From an uncultured Gammaproteobacteria bacterium (lineage in GTDB: Bacteria; Patescibacteriota; Microgenomatia; Levybacterales; GWA1-39-11): a DNA stretch of 64,000 nucleotides. A model generated the notes under the pieces. It did not search any database. It was not told the origin of the DNA and saw only the letters and a program-made list of their open reading frames with translations. Positions 3,053 through 35,538 of the stretch are shown one piece after another. The DNA is taken from NCBI GenBank assembly GCA_964627245.1, contig CAZVGS010000003.1, positions 47,551-111,550 on the forward strand. The letters run 5' to 3'. The position numbers and the translations under genes were made by a program. Numbering within the stretch: the stretch's first letter is position 1; each line of letters begins with the position of its first letter.

Positions 3053-3597
3053 GTAAGGCTGACAAACTCCGGGATATTGCCCAAGAAATTGAGGAATGCA
3101 TTGAGTGCAGGATTGGTAAAAGCGGTAAGGCTGTTGCGGGTGAAGGAAATCCAAATGCCGATATAATGTTTGTCGGAGAGGCGCCGGGCAGGACAGAAGC
3201 AGTAACGGGCAGACCGTTTGTTGGAAGGTCAGGCAAGCTTCTAAGAGAACTGATCAATGAAGCAGGTCTTTTTGAAGAACAGGTTTATATAACAAGTCCT
3301 GTAAAATATTTGCCTGATTATCTTACTCCAAAGCCTTCAGACATTGAGCACGGGCTGACTCACTTTGAAAAACAGATCAAAGTAATTGACCCGAAATTTA
3401 TTGTTTTATTAGGACGTGTTGCATGTTTGGCTGTATTAAAGAAGAAAATCTCAGTTGTTTTGGAGCATGGGTCAATAGTAAAAGATAACAACAGGGATTA
3501 TTTTATTACCGTTCATCCGGCAGCTGCTTTGAGGTTTAAGAAGATGAAAGTCTTTCTTGAAGAGGATTTTAAGATTTTGAGAGAGCTTATTTCTTAG
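3049..3597 (+). CDS. udg: uracil-DNA glycosylase family 4 (phage SPO1 DNA polymerase-related type)
   Basis: Motifs GEGNPNADIMFVGEAPG (GEAPG family-4 signature), Fe-S cysteines CIEC, and the downstream HPAAALR motif. Confidence 0.85.
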   Translation: MSKADKLRDIAQEIEECIECRIGKSGKAVAGEGNPNADIMFVGEAPGRTEAVTGRPFVGRSGKLLRELINEAGLFEEQVYITSPVKYLPDYLTPKPSDIEHGLTHFEKQIKVIDPKFIVLLGRVACLAVLKKKISVVLEHGSIVKDNNRDYFITVHPAAALRFKKMKVFLEEDFKILRELIS

Positions 3598-4075
3598 ACT
3601 TATTATCACTTCTTACAAATCTCCAGTACCCCAAAAATATTGCAACTATAAGCGAAATTGAAACTACAATGAAGCGGAACATCTCATCTCCCGCGCTAAA
3701 CCCTTTGACAACTGCGTAAATAAGAGTAATAACTCCGCCAAGCATAAGTCCATCTGACAAGTACATGATCCTACTCAGCAATGTAATGCTTATAATAAGT
3801 ATAAAAAGAGAAGCAGCGATAACAATTGCTGAAACATTCTTGTTGTAGGTTTCTATAGCCTTTTGAAAATCTCTTGACTCCTGTTCGTAATCAGCGCGTT
3901 TCTGGATCATTTCTGCTGATTCACTTACTTCACCATTAGGTGTCATTGTCACAGGTTTTGTTTCAATAGGATACTCCGGATACTTCGGAGCTTTGTAAAA
4001 TGCGGCAATGCCTACACCGACAAAGGTTACTATCAAAACCGCTAAGAATATCGAATACAAATATTTTAAGAGCAT
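3587..4075 (-). CDS. hypothetical membrane protein
   Basis: 162 aa with an N-terminal TM segment (LAVLIVTFVGVGIAAF) and further TM helices. No domain recognised. Confidence 0.45.
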   Translation of the reverse strand: MLLKYLYSIFLAVLIVTFVGVGIAAFYKAPKYPEYPIETKPVTMTPNGEVSESAEMIQKRADYEQESRDFQKAIETYNKNVSAIVIAASLFILIISITLLSRIMYLSDGLMLGGVITLIYAVVKGFSAGDEMFRFIVVSISLIVAIFLGYWRFVRSDNKSKK

Positions 4076-4847: not shown

Positions 4848-5855
4848 ATGGAAGATTTAAAAAAAAGGGCTGAAATTGTTCTTGAAAAATTGGATATTGA
4901 GAGAAAAAGGATTCGCTTTAAGGAAATCGAAGCAGAATCAGCAAATCCCGACTTCTGGAAAGACACCGAAAAAGCGTCAAAACTGATGCAGGAAATGGGC
5001 AGACTTCAAAAAGAGATCGGAAGTTATGAAAAAATTCAGGAAATATTAAAAAGTGGGGACTATAAATTTCTGGAAGATCCCTTAAGGGAAATCGAGATAA
5101 ACCTTTACCTCTCAGGACCTCTAGACAGTGCAAATGCTATTTTGAGCATTCACGCAGGGCAAGGCGGGGTTGATGCAATGGATTTTGCATCGATGCTCTC
5201 TAGGATGTATCAAAGGTATTTTGAGAGAAAGGGATATAAATTTGAAGTAATAGACCAGTCAAATGGCGAGGAGGCAGGAATAAAATATATTGATTATTTA
5301 GTTGAGGGTGAATTCTCATATGGTTATCTAAAGGGAGAAAACGGAACTCACAGACTGGTTAGGCTTTCCCCATTTAATGCAAATAATTTAAGGCAAACCT
5401 CCTTTGCTCTGGTTGAAGTTTTGCCCCAAACCGATGATGATAATACAGTTAAGCTAAATGATGACGATCTTGAATGGGATTTTTATAGAGCATCATCACA
5501 CGGCGGACAAAACGTTCAGAAAGTGTCAAGTGCCGTCAGAGTTACACACAAAACTTCAGGAATAGTTGTTACGTGTCAAACGGAGCGTTACCAAAATCAA
5601 AATAGGGAGTATGCATTAAAAGTTCTTCGGGCAAGGCTCTTGGCAAAAGCAGAAGAAGAAAGGATTATGGAGGAGAAGAAACTCAAAGGGGATTATAAAC
5701 CTGCGTCTTGGGGGAATCAGATCAGGAATTATGTGCTTCACCCATACAAAATGGTAAAAGACTTAAGAACCAATGTCGAAACTTCCAATACCGAGTCTGT
5801 TTTGGACGGTGATATAGACATATTTATAGAGGCAGAACTCAAAGAACTCGCATAA
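4848..5855 (+). CDS. prfB: peptide chain release factor 2
   Basis: GGQ motif (SSHGGQNVQKV) and the RF2-specific SPF tripeptide (RLSPFNANN). 335 aa as one contiguous ORF with no programmed +1 frameshift site. Confidence 0.9.
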   Translation: MEDLKKRAEIVLEKLDIERKRIRFKEIEAESANPDFWKDTEKASKLMQEMGRLQKEIGSYEKIQEILKSGDYKFLEDPLREIEINLYLSGPLDSANAILSIHAGQGGVDAMDFASMLSRMYQRYFERKGYKFEVIDQSNGEEAGIKYIDYLVEGEFSYGYLKGENGTHRLVRLSPFNANNLRQTSFALVEVLPQTDDDNTVKLNDDDLEWDFYRASSHGGQNVQKVSSAVRVTHKTSGIVVTCQTERYQNQNREYALKVLRARLLAKAEEERIMEEKKLKGDYKPASWGNQIRNYVLHPYKMVKDLRTNVETSNTESVLDGDIDIFIEAELKELA

Positions 5856-5906
5856 TTAAAAAGTCAAAATATGGTTATAGTTTGTGACTGAACCATATCT
5901 CCTTGC

Positions 5907-6428
5907 TTGATTAAAAGGTCAAAATATGGTTATATTAAGAGTTGTATGGAAGAGAAAAATCTGCCAAAAAAGGGTCTAATTCATGAGCTTGAACCTCGTC
6001 AGAAAAAAAGACAAAAAATAGGCAATCCCGTGACAAAATCGGTCATTTTTACAATTTTAATCATGTTGTTTCTTGGGGTTGGAACCGGATATATTGCATC
6101 AACCGTTTCAGATAATTCAGCAAAAGGACCTGTTTCGATCGAAGGCGATCTTGATTCCGGGGACATAAAAAAAGGAGTCTCGGTTGGTGTCGATGATGCT
6201 GAGCATTTTCCCGATACAGCAGAAGGGGCACTAAGAGACGGAGGAATTGATGGAGAAGGAGCTTATCATTTAGAAAGACCCGGAGGTGAATCTCAAAATG
6301 TTTATTTAACCTCTGCTGTAGTTGATCTATCACAATTCATTGGGAAAAAAGTCAAAGTGTGGGGACAAACCCAAACTGCACGAAAAGCAGGGTGGCTAAT
6401 GGATGTTGGAAAAGTGGAGGTAAAATAA
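5907..6428 (+). CDS. hypothetical membrane-anchored or secreted protein
   Basis: 173 aa with TM segment SVIFTILIMLFLGVGTGYIA and a Gly/Asp-rich ectodomain. Confidence 0.4.
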   Translation: MIKRSKYGYIKSCMEEKNLPKKGLIHELEPRQKKRQKIGNPVTKSVIFTILIMLFLGVGTGYIASTVSDNSAKGPVSIEGDLDSGDIKKGVSVGVDDAEHFPDTAEGALRDGGIDGEGAYHLERPGGESQNVYLTSAVVDLSQFIGKKVKVWGQTQTARKAGWLMDVGKVEVK

Positions 6429-6445
6429 GTTTTTCATGATCAATA

Positions 6446-7243
6446 ATGATACATTTTGCGAACGTATCCAAACAATACTACTCTGATCTTGCTCTTGATG
6501 GGCTAACTTTTACTATTGATAAAGGGGATTTCGTGTTTTTAGTCGGCCCGACAGGCAGCGGAAAAACAACAATATTTAGGTTAATAATTAGAGATCTTCT
6601 TCCAACAGATGGTAAAATCACAATAGGAGAAATTGACCTCAAAAAGCTTCCGGGTAAGAAAGTTAGGCAGCTACGAAGAAATGTGGGGGTAATTTTTCAA
6701 GACCTCAAGTTGCTGCAGGATAGAACCGTTGGTGAAAACGTAATGCTGCCACTACAATTTTCGGGGGTAAAAGAAAAAGATGCGATGGAGCGTGCGCATG
6801 AAGTATTGGAAAGTGTTGGGCTTAAAGATGCTTTTAACAAATTCCCGCTACAGCTTTCAGGTGGAGAACGTCAAAGGGTAGCCATTGCCCGCGCTTTAGT
6901 TTTTGACCCTGAAGTGATTTTAGCCGATGAACCTACCGGGAATTTAGACCTTGTTACGAGTATGCAAATACTTGGTCTTTTAGATGAAATAAATAAAAAA
7001 GGTACAACTATATTTATGGCTACACACAATGATAGGATAATAGACACAACACAAAAGAGGGTATTGGTGCTGGATAAAGGAAAACTTAAAGAAGATAGAA
7101 AGAAAAAGGGTGAAGCCATTTCTCGCAAAAATGAGTACCATAGTCAGAGTGCCTCTCATTCCATAAAACCAAAGGAGGAAGAAAGGAAAGAAGAGAAAAA
7201 GCCTAGCAAAGACACTATCAAGCTAGAAGATCTAAAACAGTAA
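6446..7243 (+). CDS. ftsE: cell division ATP-binding protein FtsE with a Lys/Glu-rich C-terminal tail
   Basis: Walker A GPTGSGKTT, ABC signature LSGGERQRVAIARAL, Walker B ILADEPTGNLD. Directly followed by ftsX. About 40 extra low-complexity residues (KEDRKKKGE...EEERKEEKK) at the C-terminus. Confidence 0.9.
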   Translation: MIHFANVSKQYYSDLALDGLTFTIDKGDFVFLVGPTGSGKTTIFRLIIRDLLPTDGKITIGEIDLKKLPGKKVRQLRRNVGVIFQDLKLLQDRTVGENVMLPLQFSGVKEKDAMERAHEVLESVGLKDAFNKFPLQLSGGERQRVAIARALVFDPEVILADEPTGNLDLVTSMQILGLLDEINKKGTTIFMATHNDRIIDTTQKRVLVLDKGKLKEDRKKKGEAISRKNEYHSQSASHSIKPKEEERKEEKKPSKDTIKLEDLKQ

Positions 7244-31717: not shown

Positions 31718-33370
31718 ATGAAAAAGTGGAGAATAATCAGCATTCAAAGTCAAAAAGTACCAAAAGAAATTAAAACTGTAGAGAAAATTCTTCTTAAGAA
31801 TAGAGGTTTTGATAAAGACGAAGAAGTAAGAGATTTTTTTAACCCTGATATCTCTGATCTAAATATTATTAATGCCGGCATCGACAAAAAGGAATTTCAA
31901 AAATTCAAGAAACGATTACAATCGGCATTTAACAATAATGAAAAAATAATAATTTTTGGAGATTTTGATGTTGATGGAATATGTGCATCAGCAATTCTTT
32001 GGGAGGCCATATATAAATCTTACAAAAATATTTTTCCATACATTCCGGATAGAATAGAAGAGGGGTACGGCTTATCCGAAAAAGGAATTGATAAAGTGTT
32101 GGAAATTCATCCTGACACGAAGGTTATAATAACTGTTGACAATGGTATTGTTGCGTTCAAGGCGGTTGATTACGCAAATTCTAAGGGCATTGATGTAGTT
32201 GTAACAGACCACCATGTTAAGGAAAAAAAACTACCAAAAGCATCTATTATACTTCACACGACAAAACTTTGCGGTGCAGGAATTGCTTGGGTAATTATTA
32301 ATAAATTAGGTTATCTATCTGATGGGAAAATCCACGAATTGTTAGAGCTTGCATGTCTTGCGACGGTTGCTGATCTTGTTCCGTTGACCTATTACAATAG
32401 GGCTATTGTAAGTGAAGGTATAACTTTATTAAGAAAAACGGAAAGGATCGGGTTGATGCAATTGATTTACGAAGCCGGAATTGATCCATCCAAAATCACA
32501 ACGTACTCAATAAGTCACATTATTGCTCCGAGGCTTAATGCATCGGGAAGAATACAGAGCGCGATGAATGCTCTTAGACTGCTTTGCACTAATGACAGAA
32601 ATAAAGCAGAAGAGCTGTCCCTAATGCTTTCTAAGCTTAATAAAAACAGGCAGGAATTAACAGAGGAGTCAGTAAGTCACGCCAAGCTTTTGGCAATAGG
32701 AAAAAAAGAAGAAGTGATAATTGTTGCGAGTAAGAAATATAGTCAGGGTGTAATTGGCCTTATTGCATCAAATCTTGTTGAAGCTTATTACAAGCCTGTG
32801 TTGGCAATATCTTTGGATGAGCCTATTTCTAAAGGCTCTGCACGATCAATAAGGGGCATTAATATTATCGAGCTTATCAGATCGACTGGTGAAGTGTTGG
32901 AAAATGCCGGGGGTCATCCGATGGCAGCAGGATTTAGTGTAAGAACTGAATTAATTGAAGAATTTTCAAAAAGAATTATTAAGAATTCTAAAAAGTATAT
33001 AACCAAGGACACGCTTGAAAGATATTTGGATATTGATTGCATGCTTTCTTTCGAATTGATTAATCCGGATTTAATAAAAACGTTAAATAAATTTGAACCC
33101 TTTGGTATGGGTAACCCTCAGCCTGTATTTGCAACAAGAAATGTTAGTGTTTTGGAATGCAGAAAAATTGGCAAGGATCAAAATCACCTTAAGTTAAAAG
33201 TTGAAAGTGAAGGGAGTATTATTGACGCTGTAGCATTCGGTTTTGGTGACAAAGTTGAGTTTAATGAGGGTGATAAAATAGATATAGCGTATGCGGTCGG
33301 TGAAAATGAATGGAATGGGAAAATTTCAATTCAGTTAAGGATAAAAGATATAGTATCTAACCAGTTGTAG
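31718..33370 (+). CDS. recJ: single-stranded-DNA-specific exonuclease RecJ
   Basis: DHH family motifs IIIFGDFDVDGICASAIL and VVVTDHH, the DHHA1 motif GGHPMAAG, and a C-terminal OB-like domain. Confidence 0.9.
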   Translation: MKKWRIISIQSQKVPKEIKTVEKILLKNRGFDKDEEVRDFFNPDISDLNIINAGIDKKEFQKFKKRLQSAFNNNEKIIIFGDFDVDGICASAILWEAIYKSYKNIFPYIPDRIEEGYGLSEKGIDKVLEIHPDTKVIITVDNGIVAFKAVDYANSKGIDVVVTDHHVKEKKLPKASIILHTTKLCGAGIAWVIINKLGYLSDGKIHELLELACLATVADLVPLTYYNRAIVSEGITLLRKTERIGLMQLIYEAGIDPSKITTYSISHIIAPRLNASGRIQSAMNALRLLCTNDRNKAEELSLMLSKLNKNRQELTEESVSHAKLLAIGKKEEVIIVASKKYSQGVIGLIASNLVEAYYKPVLAISLDEPISKGSARSIRGINIIELIRSTGEVLENAGGHPMAAGFSVRTELIEEFSKRIIKNSKKYITKDTLERYLDIDCMLSFELINPDLIKTLNKFEPFGMGNPQPVFATRNVSVLECRKIGKDQNHLKLKVESEGSIIDAVAFGFGDKVEFNEGDKIDIAYAVGENEWNGKISIQLRIKDIVSNQL

Positions 33371-33659
33371 TTGTTTTGACAAGTTCTTCAGAATCAGTCT
33401 TTGAGTTTGGATTTTGGATAATATTAGAATTTAGAGTTTCTTTCCACTTAGCGATTTTAATTTTTACCCTTTCATCTTCGGCTTTTTGTTGTAGATGAAT
33501 GTCCCTAGTTTTGTTGTTTTTAGCAATCACAGCGAGTATGGCATCGCGTTGTTTTTCAGTATTAAATTTATCTATATCCCGTTGTAAGCCCTTTACGCTC
33601 ATTTGGTCTTCTGACATGGGCTTGTCTACAGCTTCAACAAAATCGGGAGAGTCATTCAT
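33357..33659 (-). CDS. hypothetical charged protein
   Basis: 100-aa ORF downstream of, and co-oriented with, the 96-aa ORF. Its 3-prime end overlaps the recJ end by 14 nt. No domain recognised. Confidence 0.4.
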   Translation of the reverse strand: MNDSPDFVEAVDKPMSEDQMSVKGLQRDIDKFNTEKQRDAILAVIAKNNKTRDIHLQQKAEDERVKIKIAKWKETLNSNIIQNPNSKTDSEELVKTTTTG

Positions 33660-33693
33660 GATAATAATCTAACATAAAAAAGCCATTTTTTCA

Positions 33694-33984
33694 TTAATCC
33701 AGAAAAGCAATGGGTTGATCCCCAACATCATTGACAAGATCAGGTATGTGTGCTGGTTTATCAGGTGTTAGGCTAAAACCGGTCTGTTTTCCTTCATGTG
33801 ATCTTTCAGCCATTGATTTTCTAAGTCTTTCAAGTACCCTTATATTGTCATGGTGAGGAACAATCTTCATAGGGTTATCCCAATCCCCATCTGCGTACAG
33901 GAAAGGCTTTCCAGTAAGCCGAGCGCATTCTGAGAGTTCTGCGACTCTATCTTCTGGTGTAGGTTTTTTGTATAAATTCTCCAT
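33694..33984 (-). CDS. hypothetical protein
   Basis: 96-aa ORF with a coding-like composition. It is preceded on its own strand by a hairpin-U9 terminator and a candidate leader peptide (see the 33993..34101 feature). Confidence 0.45.
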   Translation of the reverse strand: MENLYKKPTPEDRVAELSECARLTGKPFLYADGDWDNPMKIVPHHDNIRVLERLRKSMAERSHEGKQTGFSLTPDKPAHIPDLVNDVGDQPIAFLD

Positions 33985-33992
33985 ATTTTTCC

Positions 33993-34101
33993 AAAAAAAA
34001 ACTCCCTCAGTGAGGGAGTCAGCGCCAAATCGGCAACAAACTCCCTAGGGCGTAATGCCCTTGAGAGAATTTCTAAAACTGGCGACGTGTGTTTTTTTCA
34101 T
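33993..34101 (-). promoter_or_regulatory. candidate transcription attenuator: leader peptide ORF (MKKTHVASFRNSLKGITP-stop) followed by mutually exclusive antiterminator and terminator hairpins and a U9 tract
   Basis: On the minus strand the leader ORF runs from AUG 34101 to UAG 34045. The upstream element AGGGAGU at about 34036-34042 can pair with ACUCCCU in the 5-prime arm of the terminator hairpin (CUCCCUC-agu-GAGGGAG, 34002-34018). U9 occupies 33993-34001, and the start codon of the 96-aa gene lies 8 nt further downstream at 33984. Confidence 0.35.
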
Positions 34102-34182
34102 AATCCAAAAATTATTATAGTTATATATTTTCATGCTGTCAATACACTATTTTGAAGCAAAATATGATATGATACAGCTATT

Positions 34183-35538
34183 ATGCAAAACCGTGTTCTG
34201 ACTAGTGAGGTCGTCAACAAAGTTGGTGAAACAGTAGTTATTTGTGGGTGGATTGAGAGAGTGAGAAGTCATGGGAAAATAGCATTTTTTGACATCAGGG
34301 ACCGGGGTGGAGTCCTTCAGGTTGTAGCAGCAACCCCAGAGGTAGTTGCGTCTGTCGAAGAACTTTCAGTTCAAAGTGTTGTAACTATCACAGGAATTGT
34401 CAAAGAGCGGGGTGAGCGGTACGTAAATCCTAATATCCCGCTTGGATCTGTAGAAGTAGAATTGACTAAAGCTGTTGAGATCATCTCAAAAGCTGAGGAG
34501 ATGCCTTTTGATATGGGTGGAACTGAGTTAAATCTACAGCTACCTACACTTCTTGATTTTAGGGCATTGTCTTTGAGGCATCAGCAGATCACTCCAATTT
34601 TTAAGGTCCAAGAAACGGTAATAGATACTTTCAGAAAGGCATTAAAAGCACGTGATTTTACAGAATTTCAAGCACCAGTAATAATCCCCCAAACAGCAGA
34701 AGGAGGATCGGAAGTTTTTGAAGTAAAATATTTTGATCATAAGGCTTATCTTGCTCAAAGTCCACAATTCTACAAACAGATATTGGTGGGAGTTTATGAA
34801 AGGGTTTTTGCAGTGAATAAGACGCTCAGAGCCGAACCCTCTGTTACGACAAGGCATCTTACCGAAGTAACCACACTTGATGCTGAGTTTGGTTTTATAA
34901 ATTCATGGGAAGATGTTATGGAAATGGCTCAGTATGTAATTACAGAAATACTAAATGCAGTTGAAGATCAACAGAAAGATGTTCTCGAGATGTATAAAAC
35001 AACAATACCCAAAGTCGGAAATCCTATTCCAAGAGTTAAGTTGAGAGATGCACAGCAAATAATTGCAAAACGTATTGGTAAGGATGTTTCTGACGAACCT
35101 GATCTTTCACCAGAGGATGAAAAGGAGATTTGCAAGTGGGCGCTTGCGGAAAAGGGTAGTGATCTAGTTTTTGTAACACATTATCCTGTAAGTAAAAGGC
35201 CTTTTTATACATATGAAGACCCAGAGGATCCTGGATATACGCTTAGCTTTGATCTGATTGGACGGGGGACTGAATGGTTAACCGGTGGGCAACGCATTAA
35301 TGACTATGAAAAACTGGTCACTGCGGCAAAAGGTAGGGGGATTGATCTCGCGAAAAGCGAGCTTTATCTTCAAGCATTTCGATACGGTATGCCTCCGGAG
35401 GGTGGGTTTTCCTTTGGATCTGAACGAATTGTCATGCATATTTTAGGACTAGCAAATGTACGTGAAGCCTCTCTTTTTCCAAGAGATATGGAGCGAATAG
35501 ATGAAAGACTCTCAATCCTCAAAAAAGAAAAAGAATAA
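34183..35538 (+). CDS. aspS: aspartate--tRNA ligase, archaeal/eukaryal-type (short class IIb)
   Basis: N-terminal OB-fold, class II motifs, and the QSPQ signature (AYLAQSPQFYKQ). The 451-aa size matches the archaeal-type, likely non-discriminating enzyme. Confidence 0.85.
   Translation: MQNRVLTSEVVNKVGETVVICGWIERVRSHGKIAFFDIRDRGGVLQVVAATPEVVASVEELSVQSVVTITGIVKERGERYVNPNIPLGSVEVELTKAVEIISKAEEMPFDMGGTELNLQLPTLLDFRALSLRHQQITPIFKVQETVIDTFRKALKARDFTEFQAPVIIPQTAEGGSEVFEVKYFDHKAYLAQSPQFYKQILVGVYERVFAVNKTLRAEPSVTTRHLTEVTTLDAEFGFINSWEDVMEMAQYVITEILNAVEDQQKDVLEMYKTTIPKVGNPIPRVKLRDAQQIIAKRIGKDVSDEPDLSPEDEKEICKWALAEKGSDLVFVTHYPVSKRPFYTYEDPEDPGYTLSFDLIGRGTEWLTGGQRINDYEKLVTAAKGRGIDLAKSELYLQAFRYGMPPEGGFSFGSERIVMHILGLANVREASLFPRDMERIDERLSILKKEKE

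Follow-up and report, generated by a model that had tools for sequence, protein, structure and literature searches.

The 64,000-nt stretch of contig CAZVGS010000003.1 analysed here (the window, a term used below for this whole stretch) comes from a genome placed by GTDB in the Levybacterales of the Microgenomatia, and carries on its minus strand a compact candidate leader element followed by two small genes for proteins of 96 and 100 residues. Flanking these are the genes for a CCA-adding enzyme, RecJ, a short class-II aspartyl-tRNA synthetase (AspRS, encoded by aspS), and a D-Ala-D-Ala carboxypeptidase. An original prediction, made from the DNA letters alone, had proposed translation-coupled attenuation at this place by means of a leader open reading frame (ORF) and alternative hairpins, and our comparison of about 35 related loci strongly supports this proposal. 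We thus regard the element as probably being a ribosome-dependent transcription attenuator of the leader-peptide type, with the two small downstream genes under its control. Its parts are as follows, with coordinates given for the window and the codons of the leader counted back from the stop.

34142-34114, minus strand: promoter, with the -35 hexamer TTGACA at 34142-34137, a 17-nt spacer, and the -10 hexamer TATAAT at 34119-34114 (12 of 12 positions of the sigma-70 consensus)
34101-34045, minus strand: leader ORF, AUG at 34101-34099 and UAG at 34047-34045, 18 codons plus stop, predicted peptide MKKTHVASFRNSLKGITP
34064-34072, minus strand: segment 1, AAAUUCUCU, within the ORF (codons -9 to -6); partner, segment 2
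34047-34061, minus strand: P1 hairpin, AGGGC-AUUAC-GCCCU, nested in helix 1:2; its final U is the U of the UAG stop
34038-34046, minus strand: segment 2, AGGGAGUUU, beginning at the A of the stop codon; partner, segment 1 or 3
34022-34037, minus strand: P2 (GU-GCC / GGC-GC), apical extension of the 2:3 antiterminator hairpin
34012-34020, minus strand: segment 3, GACUCCCUC, shared by the antiterminator (as its 3' arm) and the terminator (as its 5' arm)
33993-34008, minus strand: segment 4, GAGGGAGUU, plus U9 (34001-33993), which complete the intrinsic terminator as its 3' arm and tail
33694-33984, minus strand: first gene under predicted control, 96 aa, orphan, with its AUG at 33984, 8 nt past the U-tract
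33357-33659, minus strand: second gene under predicted control, 100 aa, orphan, convergent with recJ and overlapping the recJ 3' end

Promoter and hairpins in the window

The coordinates first given for the minus-strand leader ORF, the AGGGAGU and ACUCCCU elements, the terminator, the U9 tract, and the 8-nt gap to the 96-aa gene all agree with the sequence. Here, AGGGAGU occupies 34046-34040, its first A being the middle base of the leader stop, and ACUCCCU occupies 34019-34013. For the terminator hairpin at 34002-34018, both arms stand as predicted (CUCCCUC at 34018-34012 and GAGGGAG at 34008-34002), and the loop is ACU (34011-34009) rather than the AGU originally named; the stem, of 9 bp in full (34020-34000), leads into U9 (34001-33993). 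A feature absent from the original prediction is the promoter with its complete match to the consensus. Nine promoter candidates were listed by a simple scan of the 64-kb window, all with TTGACA as the -35 hexamer, and that of the leader is the sole one with TATAAT as the -10. Judging from the position of this promoter, transcription would start at ~34107-34105, which is about 5-7 nt 5' of the leader AUG. Between the U-tract and the AUG of the 96-aa gene in the window, no promoter-like site was found. A search of both strands of the 64 kb for a perfect stem of at least 7 bp followed by at least 6 U returned only the terminator of the attenuator, and strong intrinsic terminators are very rare in the window.

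Segments 1 and 3 of the window are alike, as are segments 2 and 4, and from this likeness it follows that the RNA can form either 1:2 together with 3:4 (the terminator) or 2:3 (the antiterminator). The pairing of segment 1 is based on fold A (-17.0 kcal/mol including P1), on the RNAalifold consensus, and on the covariation of 1:2 with P1 described below, while fold B (2:3 with P2) has an energy of -18.2 kcal/mol. Folding of the region agrees with the alternative hairpins of the original prediction, and the 126-nt stretch is more stable than its dinucleotide shuffles (-42.7 kcal/mol versus -28.2 ± 3.5 kcal/mol; z = -4.2, with 0 of 200 as good).

Related copies of the element in Microgenomates

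For comparison, we used 80 related aspS loci from a species-level genome collection, all gathered through aspS, the nearest of which belong to metagenome-assembled genomes titled Daviesbacteria, Levybacteria/Levyibacteriota, Woesebacteria, Roizmanbacteria, Gottesmanbacteria, or Microgenomates (Patescibacteria, or Candidate Phyla Radiation (CPR) bacteria). An nhmmer search with 162 nt of the window located the element in a dozen of the 80 loci, where it lies just upstream of aspS and in the opposite orientation to it. With a covariance model of 13 copies, the number of hits rose to 44. Convincing copies at an equal place and in the same orientation are present in ~34 of the 80 loci, though because the loci were collected via aspS, the linkage to this gene is partly a matter of ascertainment.

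The order of parts is shared: a TTGACA -35 and a -10, the AUG, the pyrimidine segment 1, a short hairpin or loop, the purine segment 2, the variable stem P2, the pyrimidine segment 3, a loop, the purine segment 4 with its U-run, and the gene start. Moreover, nearly all homologous loci have the TTGACA -35 ahead of the leader, and an intrinsic terminator separates the leader ORF from the first gene in all 34 loci where a terminator was located. In every locus with a gene directly called at this place, its start is 5-21 nt past the U-tract.

Some loci deviate from the single-copy arrangement. A second tandem copy on the same strand is present in locus L062 (3517-3649 and 2065-2194) and in locus L083 (3814-3926 and 3434-3550), with each copy preceding its own small gene, and the second copy of L083 is without a clear leader ORF. 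In locus L009 (Candidatus Daviesbacteria GW2011_GWA1_41_61), the cassette (3480-3700, plus strand) is on the same strand as aspS and directly upstream of it. Its promoter and 26-codon leader are followed by a terminator of GGGAGG/CCUCCC and by an 82-aa gene that has a strong Shine-Dalgarno sequence; judging from this placement, the attenuator could here also affect aspS. The cassette is absent from locus L008, where aspS abuts the CCA-enzyme gene. A scan of metagenomes with a pattern of segment 2, segment 3, and terminator gave, among the matches listed, mostly unrelated terminators; only three of these listed matches (L124, L096, and L091) were attenuator-like, L124 being a similar element in a different context.

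Covariation of the alternative helices

All 34 usable copies fold locally into 1:2, 2:3, and 3:4, with energies of -8 to -22 kcal/mol for 1:2, -9 to -23 kcal/mol for 2:3 with P2, and -7 to -18 kcal/mol for 3:4, and these mutually exclusive pairings are found together with a segment 1 that lies inside the ORF. For the window's clade, RNAalifold returned the 1:2 hairpin with nested P1 plus the 3:4 terminator. Here, helix 1:2 with P1 has undergone compensatory changes (for instance, pair 47:55 is GC, CG, or UA), and its covariation score was reached by 0 of 500 shuffles, a generous figure as are the other shuffle statistics of this comparison. Between lineages, the segments change jointly, the combinations being AGGGAGU/ACUCCCU/AGGGAGU, GGGAGAU/AUCUCCC/GGGAGAU, GAGGAGAU/AUCUCCUC, GGGAGGU/ACCUCCC, and AAGAGGGGUUUG/CAAACCUCUU/AAGAGGU (the AAGAGGU/ACCUCUU block). 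Partners from the same locus also pair better than foreign ones: of 5000 permutations, none reached the observed mean for 2:3, none for 3:4, and 142 for 1:2. In a structure-blind MAFFT alignment of the 34 copies, 72% of the cells of helix 2:3 are paired (covariation score reached by 3 of 500 shuffles) and 82% of those of helix 3:4 (0 of 500), both helices being best at slide 0. The signal is drawn from several deep lineages, and the covariation of 2:3 is seen only between clades.

Regarding base composition, segments 2 and 4 are always all-purine and Shine-Dalgarno-like (GGGAG, GGAGG, GAGGAG), and segments 1 and 3 all-pyrimidine. The simpler explanation of this make-up would be that it prevents segments 1 and 3, and segments 2 and 4, from pairing, and it is possible that the leader segments interact with the ribosomal anti-Shine-Dalgarno sequence. 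Segment 3 of locus L053 is ACCUCCUUA, which resembles the 16S rRNA 3' end. Segments 2 and 4 were rejected as actual Shine-Dalgarno sites, because the 17-20 nt that separate them from the gene AUG in the window's clade are too great a distance. Likewise rejected was a second ORF starting from a GUG in P2, for which there is no consistent frame or length.

Conservation of the leader ORF

An ORF of 14-19 codons that begins with AUG (once GUG) and has its stop at the 5' edge of segment 2 is present in 35 of 38 hits. Shuffling of the 72 nt before the stop produced such an ORF in 5.5% of cases, which amounts to 2.0 expected per 36 copies as against the 35 observed. The stop codon is UAG in 21 leaders, UAA in 9, and UGA in 5, and because all three are used at one place, what has been kept is a stop in frame and not a particular sequence. 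Within the leaders, there are 0 stops in the leader frame, and 16 and 62 in the other two frames. Across related genomes, the pairing covaries and the short leader is conserved as an ORF, as the original prediction would require. The peptide sequence itself is poorly conserved among loci. In composition, Asp and Glu account for 3 of 564 leader residues versus 11% in the window proteins, and the enrichment relative to the same proteins is 2.1-fold for Asn, 1.9-fold for Phe, 2.6-fold for His, and 5.2-fold for Cys. Such a composition, as predicted from the ORFs, is typical of classical leader peptides, these being hydrophobic and basic and almost without Asp or Glu.

Predicted switching by a leader ribosome

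To represent a ribosome in the folds, its footprint was taken as the first base of the A site plus 13 nt and forced to be single-stranded. The outcome of such folds is thermodynamic and not kinetic, and the behaviour in life would depend on the kinetics of folding and pausing. Without a ribosome, segment 3 pairs with segment 4 to give the terminator in 28 of 34 copies. When the A site is placed at codon -8, segment 3 joins segment 2 in the antiterminator in 24 of 34, and when the ribosome occupies the stop codon, 33 of 34 copies form the terminator. A sliding scan of the A site over 33 loci revealed that the antiterminator is favoured from about codon -12 to -4, and that in 28 of them the last three sense codons and the stop lead to the terminator. 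As long as segment 4 has yet to be transcribed, the energies of the two states lie 0 to 6 kcal/mol apart in 32 of 34 loci, and this calculated gap is as expected of a switch.

In the mechanism that we propose, a very strong promoter would give rise to an RNA whose first 57 nt encode the 18-residue peptide and that contains segments 1-4. Without a ribosome, 1:2 would form first, segment 3 would be left free for segment 4, and transcription would end at 33993. A ribosome that reaches the stop codon would sit on segment 2, with the result that 3:4 forms and transcription again ends. If instead the ribosome is held ~4-12 codons before the stop, segment 1 would be covered and segment 2 free to form the 2:3 antiterminator, upon which RNA polymerase would continue into the 96-aa and 100-aa genes. 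The operon would then be off without translation, off with smooth translation, and on when the leader ribosome is held over segment 1. Because only a leader stall over segment 1 would free 2:3, the operon is predicted to be induced by slowed elongation in the leader.

Several points weigh against an attenuator of this kind. In the full naked RNA of the window and five other loci, the minimum-energy fold is 2:3 with a long-range 1:4 pairing, which means that the outcome without a ribosome would depend on folding kinetics (in the window, on 1:2 forming first). In the window's clade, helix 2:3 is 84% paired with no double changes, and so is conserved and not compensated, and the shuffle statistics are overstated in that they treat related loci as independent. 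In two exceptions, L060 and L009, the ORF extends 8 codons beyond segment 2. Among the 35 leaders, there is no run of a single codon, nor a cognate-codon run in the stall window, the residues of which are mixed (Ile, Asn, and Lys are commonest, at ~10-13% each), and because the cargo has no recognisable function, the usual check of codon against pathway is removed. Finally, we infer, from sequence and folding, actual termination, read-through, translation of the leader, and the nature of the stall.

Possible signal sensed by the leader

Our best guess is that the attenuator serves as a general sensor, either of translation stress or of the supply of amino acids, which would respond to elongation slowed by shortage or by inhibitors, and that the Asn codons at -8 to -11 are the most likely sensitive codons in the window's clade. 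An amino-acid-specific variant, in which the attenuator would sense Asn-tRNA(Asn) and be tied to the adjacent archaeal-type AspRS, appears unlikely. This AspRS, we presume, may be non-discriminating and feed an indirect Asn-tRNA pathway. Asn codons number 59 in the leader frame compared with 15 and 14 in the other frames, their 2.1-fold enrichment over the window proteins was noted above, and in the window's clade all leaders except that of L073 have at least one Asn at -8 to -11, many as NN or NNN; the constant adjoining of aspS would fit such a sensor as well. Against this, 8 of 35 leaders have no Asn and that of the window has just one, the enrichment of Phe, His, and Cys is as strong as that of Asn or stronger, AAU is common in a 37% GC genome, and the A-rich stretch can also pair with the U-tract. 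Moreover, the loci were gathered via aspS, and the attenuator points away from this gene in nearly all of them. A recurrent mid-peptide His codon (CAC) was also considered as the sensor and rejected, it being mostly too far upstream of segment 1 and absent in about one-third of the loci.

Other explanations for the element

The same conserved parts could belong to a stand-alone small RNA gene of ~110 nt whose product acts as RNA, with the ORF being incidental and the downstream genes expressed otherwise. With no stronger promoter and no other perfect terminator in the 64 kb, the short transcript should be abundant, its fold is very stable, and the RNA is conserved while the downstream proteins are unrelated between genomes, all of which agrees with this explanation. 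We nonetheless find it quite improbable, as the ORF is kept in 35 of 36 copies with three stop codons in one place and a length varying by whole codons, and a structural RNA would not need a conserved ORF; also, a gene start 5-21 nt past the U-tract in nearly all loci leaves no room for a promoter, and there is no match to an Rfam family. The roles of small RNA and attenuator are compatible, in that a terminated leader can also act in trans. As an alternative to attenuation, the original prediction had put forward a small RNA antisense to the aspS promoter region. However, no part of the transcript (~34106-33993) falls within the aspS promoter or gene, which occupy 34143 onwards. The leader unit and the aspS unit are back-to-back with no overlap, and the antisense alternative is therefore unsupported.

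A riboswitch, or a switch worked by an RNA-binding protein, is very improbable. In such a case, a ligand or protein would stabilise either 1:2/P1 or 2:3/P2, and translation of the ORF would be irrelevant. Identical alternative hairpins would serve, and the P2 stem in the window's clade does contain a partly conserved GCGUG...CGCGA, but there is no conserved unpaired core, the P1 and P2 loops vary freely in length and sequence, and the conservation of the ORF and of its stop at the edge of segment 2 would be left unexplained. Rfam gave no match at the gathering score in the 64-kb window and nothing relevant at E values up to 10 in 33000-35000, and hence no match to a curated leader model (Trp_leader, His_leader, etc.). 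Neither a riboswitch ligand core nor a known class was found, as the original prediction had likewise recognised no riboswitch consensus. A T-box also gave no Rfam hit, and the element is on the strand opposite to aspS and points away from it.

The trigger originally favoured, a TnaC-like stall in which a ribosome held at the Pro-UAG termination context would free the antiterminator, is exceedingly improbable: the leaders of the window and five relatives do end in Pro-UAG, but Pro is final in only 6 of 35 leaders, no conserved arrest motif with Pro before the stop is found, the last three residues vary freely because they lie within the covarying P1 stem, and a ribosome on the stop would mask segment 2 (terminator in 33 of 34 loci, and in 28 of the 33 scanned when the last three sense codons are included), so that a stall there would switch the operon off, not on.

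Genes downstream of the proposed attenuator

No Pfam domain was identified in the 96-aa and 100-aa proteins, and for both, a word-indexed search of 5.8 billion proteins returned only the proteins themselves. A full HMMER scan of 1.84 billion representatives with the 96-aa protein likewise found only itself, and its AlphaFold model (a pLDDT, or predicted local distance difference test, score of 46) is unusable. In general, the cargo of the putative attenuator is small (~50-200 aa, once 428 aa), and falls into more than 25 unrelated groups among 36 loci. For 26 downstream proteins, including the two of the window, there was no Pfam or NCBIfam match, and PADLOC gave one marginal, uninformative hit. 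The 428-aa cargo, which follows the L062 copy at 3517-3649, has no Pfam, NCBIfam, or PDB sequence match; it contains DAMGLMFVVKG, a motif that may resemble those of nucleotidyltransferases or RelA-SpoT-like proteins. Genes of a pathway matching the leader codons were not found downstream.

When the window was compared with three related loci (L007, L012, and L013), we noticed that they are collinear, with 66-82% nucleotide identity over the CCA-adding enzyme gene, recJ, aspS, and beyond. The two small genes (the 33322-33982 stretch) are the part that aligns in none of the three comparisons, and even among the nearest relatives, the first genes are of unrelated families. What is unusual about this group of elements, as it appears from these alignments, is a conserved predicted switch with fast-changing cargo.

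Relation to known attenuation systems

The classical attenuators of trpL, pheL/pheM, hisL, thrL, leuL, and ilvL have a short ORF near the promoter, four segments, and a terminator before the first gene, and in these systems a stall over segment 1 leads to the antiterminator, and the absence of a ribosome or a ribosome at the stop to the terminator. The window family shares with these Proteobacterial amino-acid attenuators the same build of ORF, four segments, and terminator, the predicted ribosome logic, and the Asp- and Glu-poor peptides. In contrast, it is without a run of cognate codons, its cargo is orphan and not biosynthetic or a tRNA synthetase, it has no Rfam match, its stop abuts or overlaps segment 2, its segments 1/3 and 2/4 are near-duplicates that are all-pyrimidine and all-purine, respectively, and its hosts are CPR bacteria. 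TnaC stalls at its own stop codon and so blocks Rho. Both in tna and, as predicted, in the window, the ribosome on a short ORF decides on downstream transcription, and the window leader ends in Pro-stop; however, termination in the window would be intrinsic, Pro-stop is found in 6 of 35 leaders, and a ribosome at the stop favours termination.

Ribosome-mediated attenuators that answer translation inhibitors have been described in Firmicutes for bmrB-bmrCD (PMC4191407), hflXr (PMC6310831), and the msrD leader (10.1101/2021.11.29.470318). As reported, they share with the window family a short ORF without a run of cognate codons and the alternatives of terminator and antiterminator, and are induced by any slowing of the leader ribosome, which makes them the closest functional analogy. 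As there described, these leaders control recognisable resistance or ribosome-rescue genes, whereas the window cargo is not recognisable as resistance; no sequence or Rfam relationship to the window family was found, although the architecture is compatible. Likewise close in function is the ToiL upstream ORF of topAI-yjhQ in Escherichia coli, which is reported to sense several translation stresses and to switch on a pair of small genes (PMC12121999). No sequence relationship to ToiL was found, the window cargo is not recognisable as a toxin-antitoxin pair, and the window uses an intrinsic terminator.

Alike in segment chemistry is the pheST leader of locus L096 (5548-5667, plus strand), which is situated between rplT (5177-5536) and pheS (5679-6740) and has the same build, including a TTGACA promoter and the segments AAGGGGAG, ACUCCCC, and GGGGAGU7. 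Its peptide, MTGKLALTSFFFFSHC, has four Phe codons and precedes pheS-pheT, and it is consequently an ordinary Phe attenuator, whereas the window family is without such a match of codon and cargo.

Full-text searches of a literature library found no paper that connects Patescibacteria or CPR with attenuation or leader peptides. To our knowledge, almost nothing is known about gene regulation in CPR bacteria, and these bacteria cannot be grown alone. While the mechanism proposed here is a textbook one, the family, the host group, and the orphan cargo are new, and the family shows, as far as conserved sequence and predicted structure go, a classical leader-peptide attenuator in use in Microgenomates. 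Being absent from Rfam, the family could be modelled and searched for in all CPR genomes. The orphan gene pair would be marked as turned on by slowed translation, which offers a first handle on these fast-evolving proteins. A broader idea, which we consider doubtful, is that of a Microgenomates-wide translation-stress switch independent of its cargo, with a module long kept and small genes that have been replaced or have diverged beyond recognition. If true, ribosome stalling would serve CPR bacteria as a means of inducing lineage-specific proteins, with host interaction or stress as possible roles, and in the window's clade a stall at the Asn codons could link the switch to the neighbouring AspRS and to the indirect pathway for Asn-tRNA.

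Neighbouring genes

At the far end of the operon, the 100-aa gene converges with recJ, the two overlapping by 14 nt (33357-33370). On the other side, the carboxypeptidase gene begins 38 nt inside the aspS 3' end (35501-35538), this being a longest-ORF call for which a later start is possible. The 36 nt ahead of the aspS AUG (34143-34185, plus strand) are almost invariant in the window's clade and read TTTTGAAGCAAAATATG[G/A]TATGATACAGCTATT-ATG. They include an extended -10-like TGnTATGAT (34165-34173, plus strand) that ends 9 nt before the AUG, and there is no Shine-Dalgarno sequence. Given these two features, the aspS mRNA is probably leaderless or nearly so, and would be transcribed from an extended -10 promoter that is back-to-back with the leader promoter.

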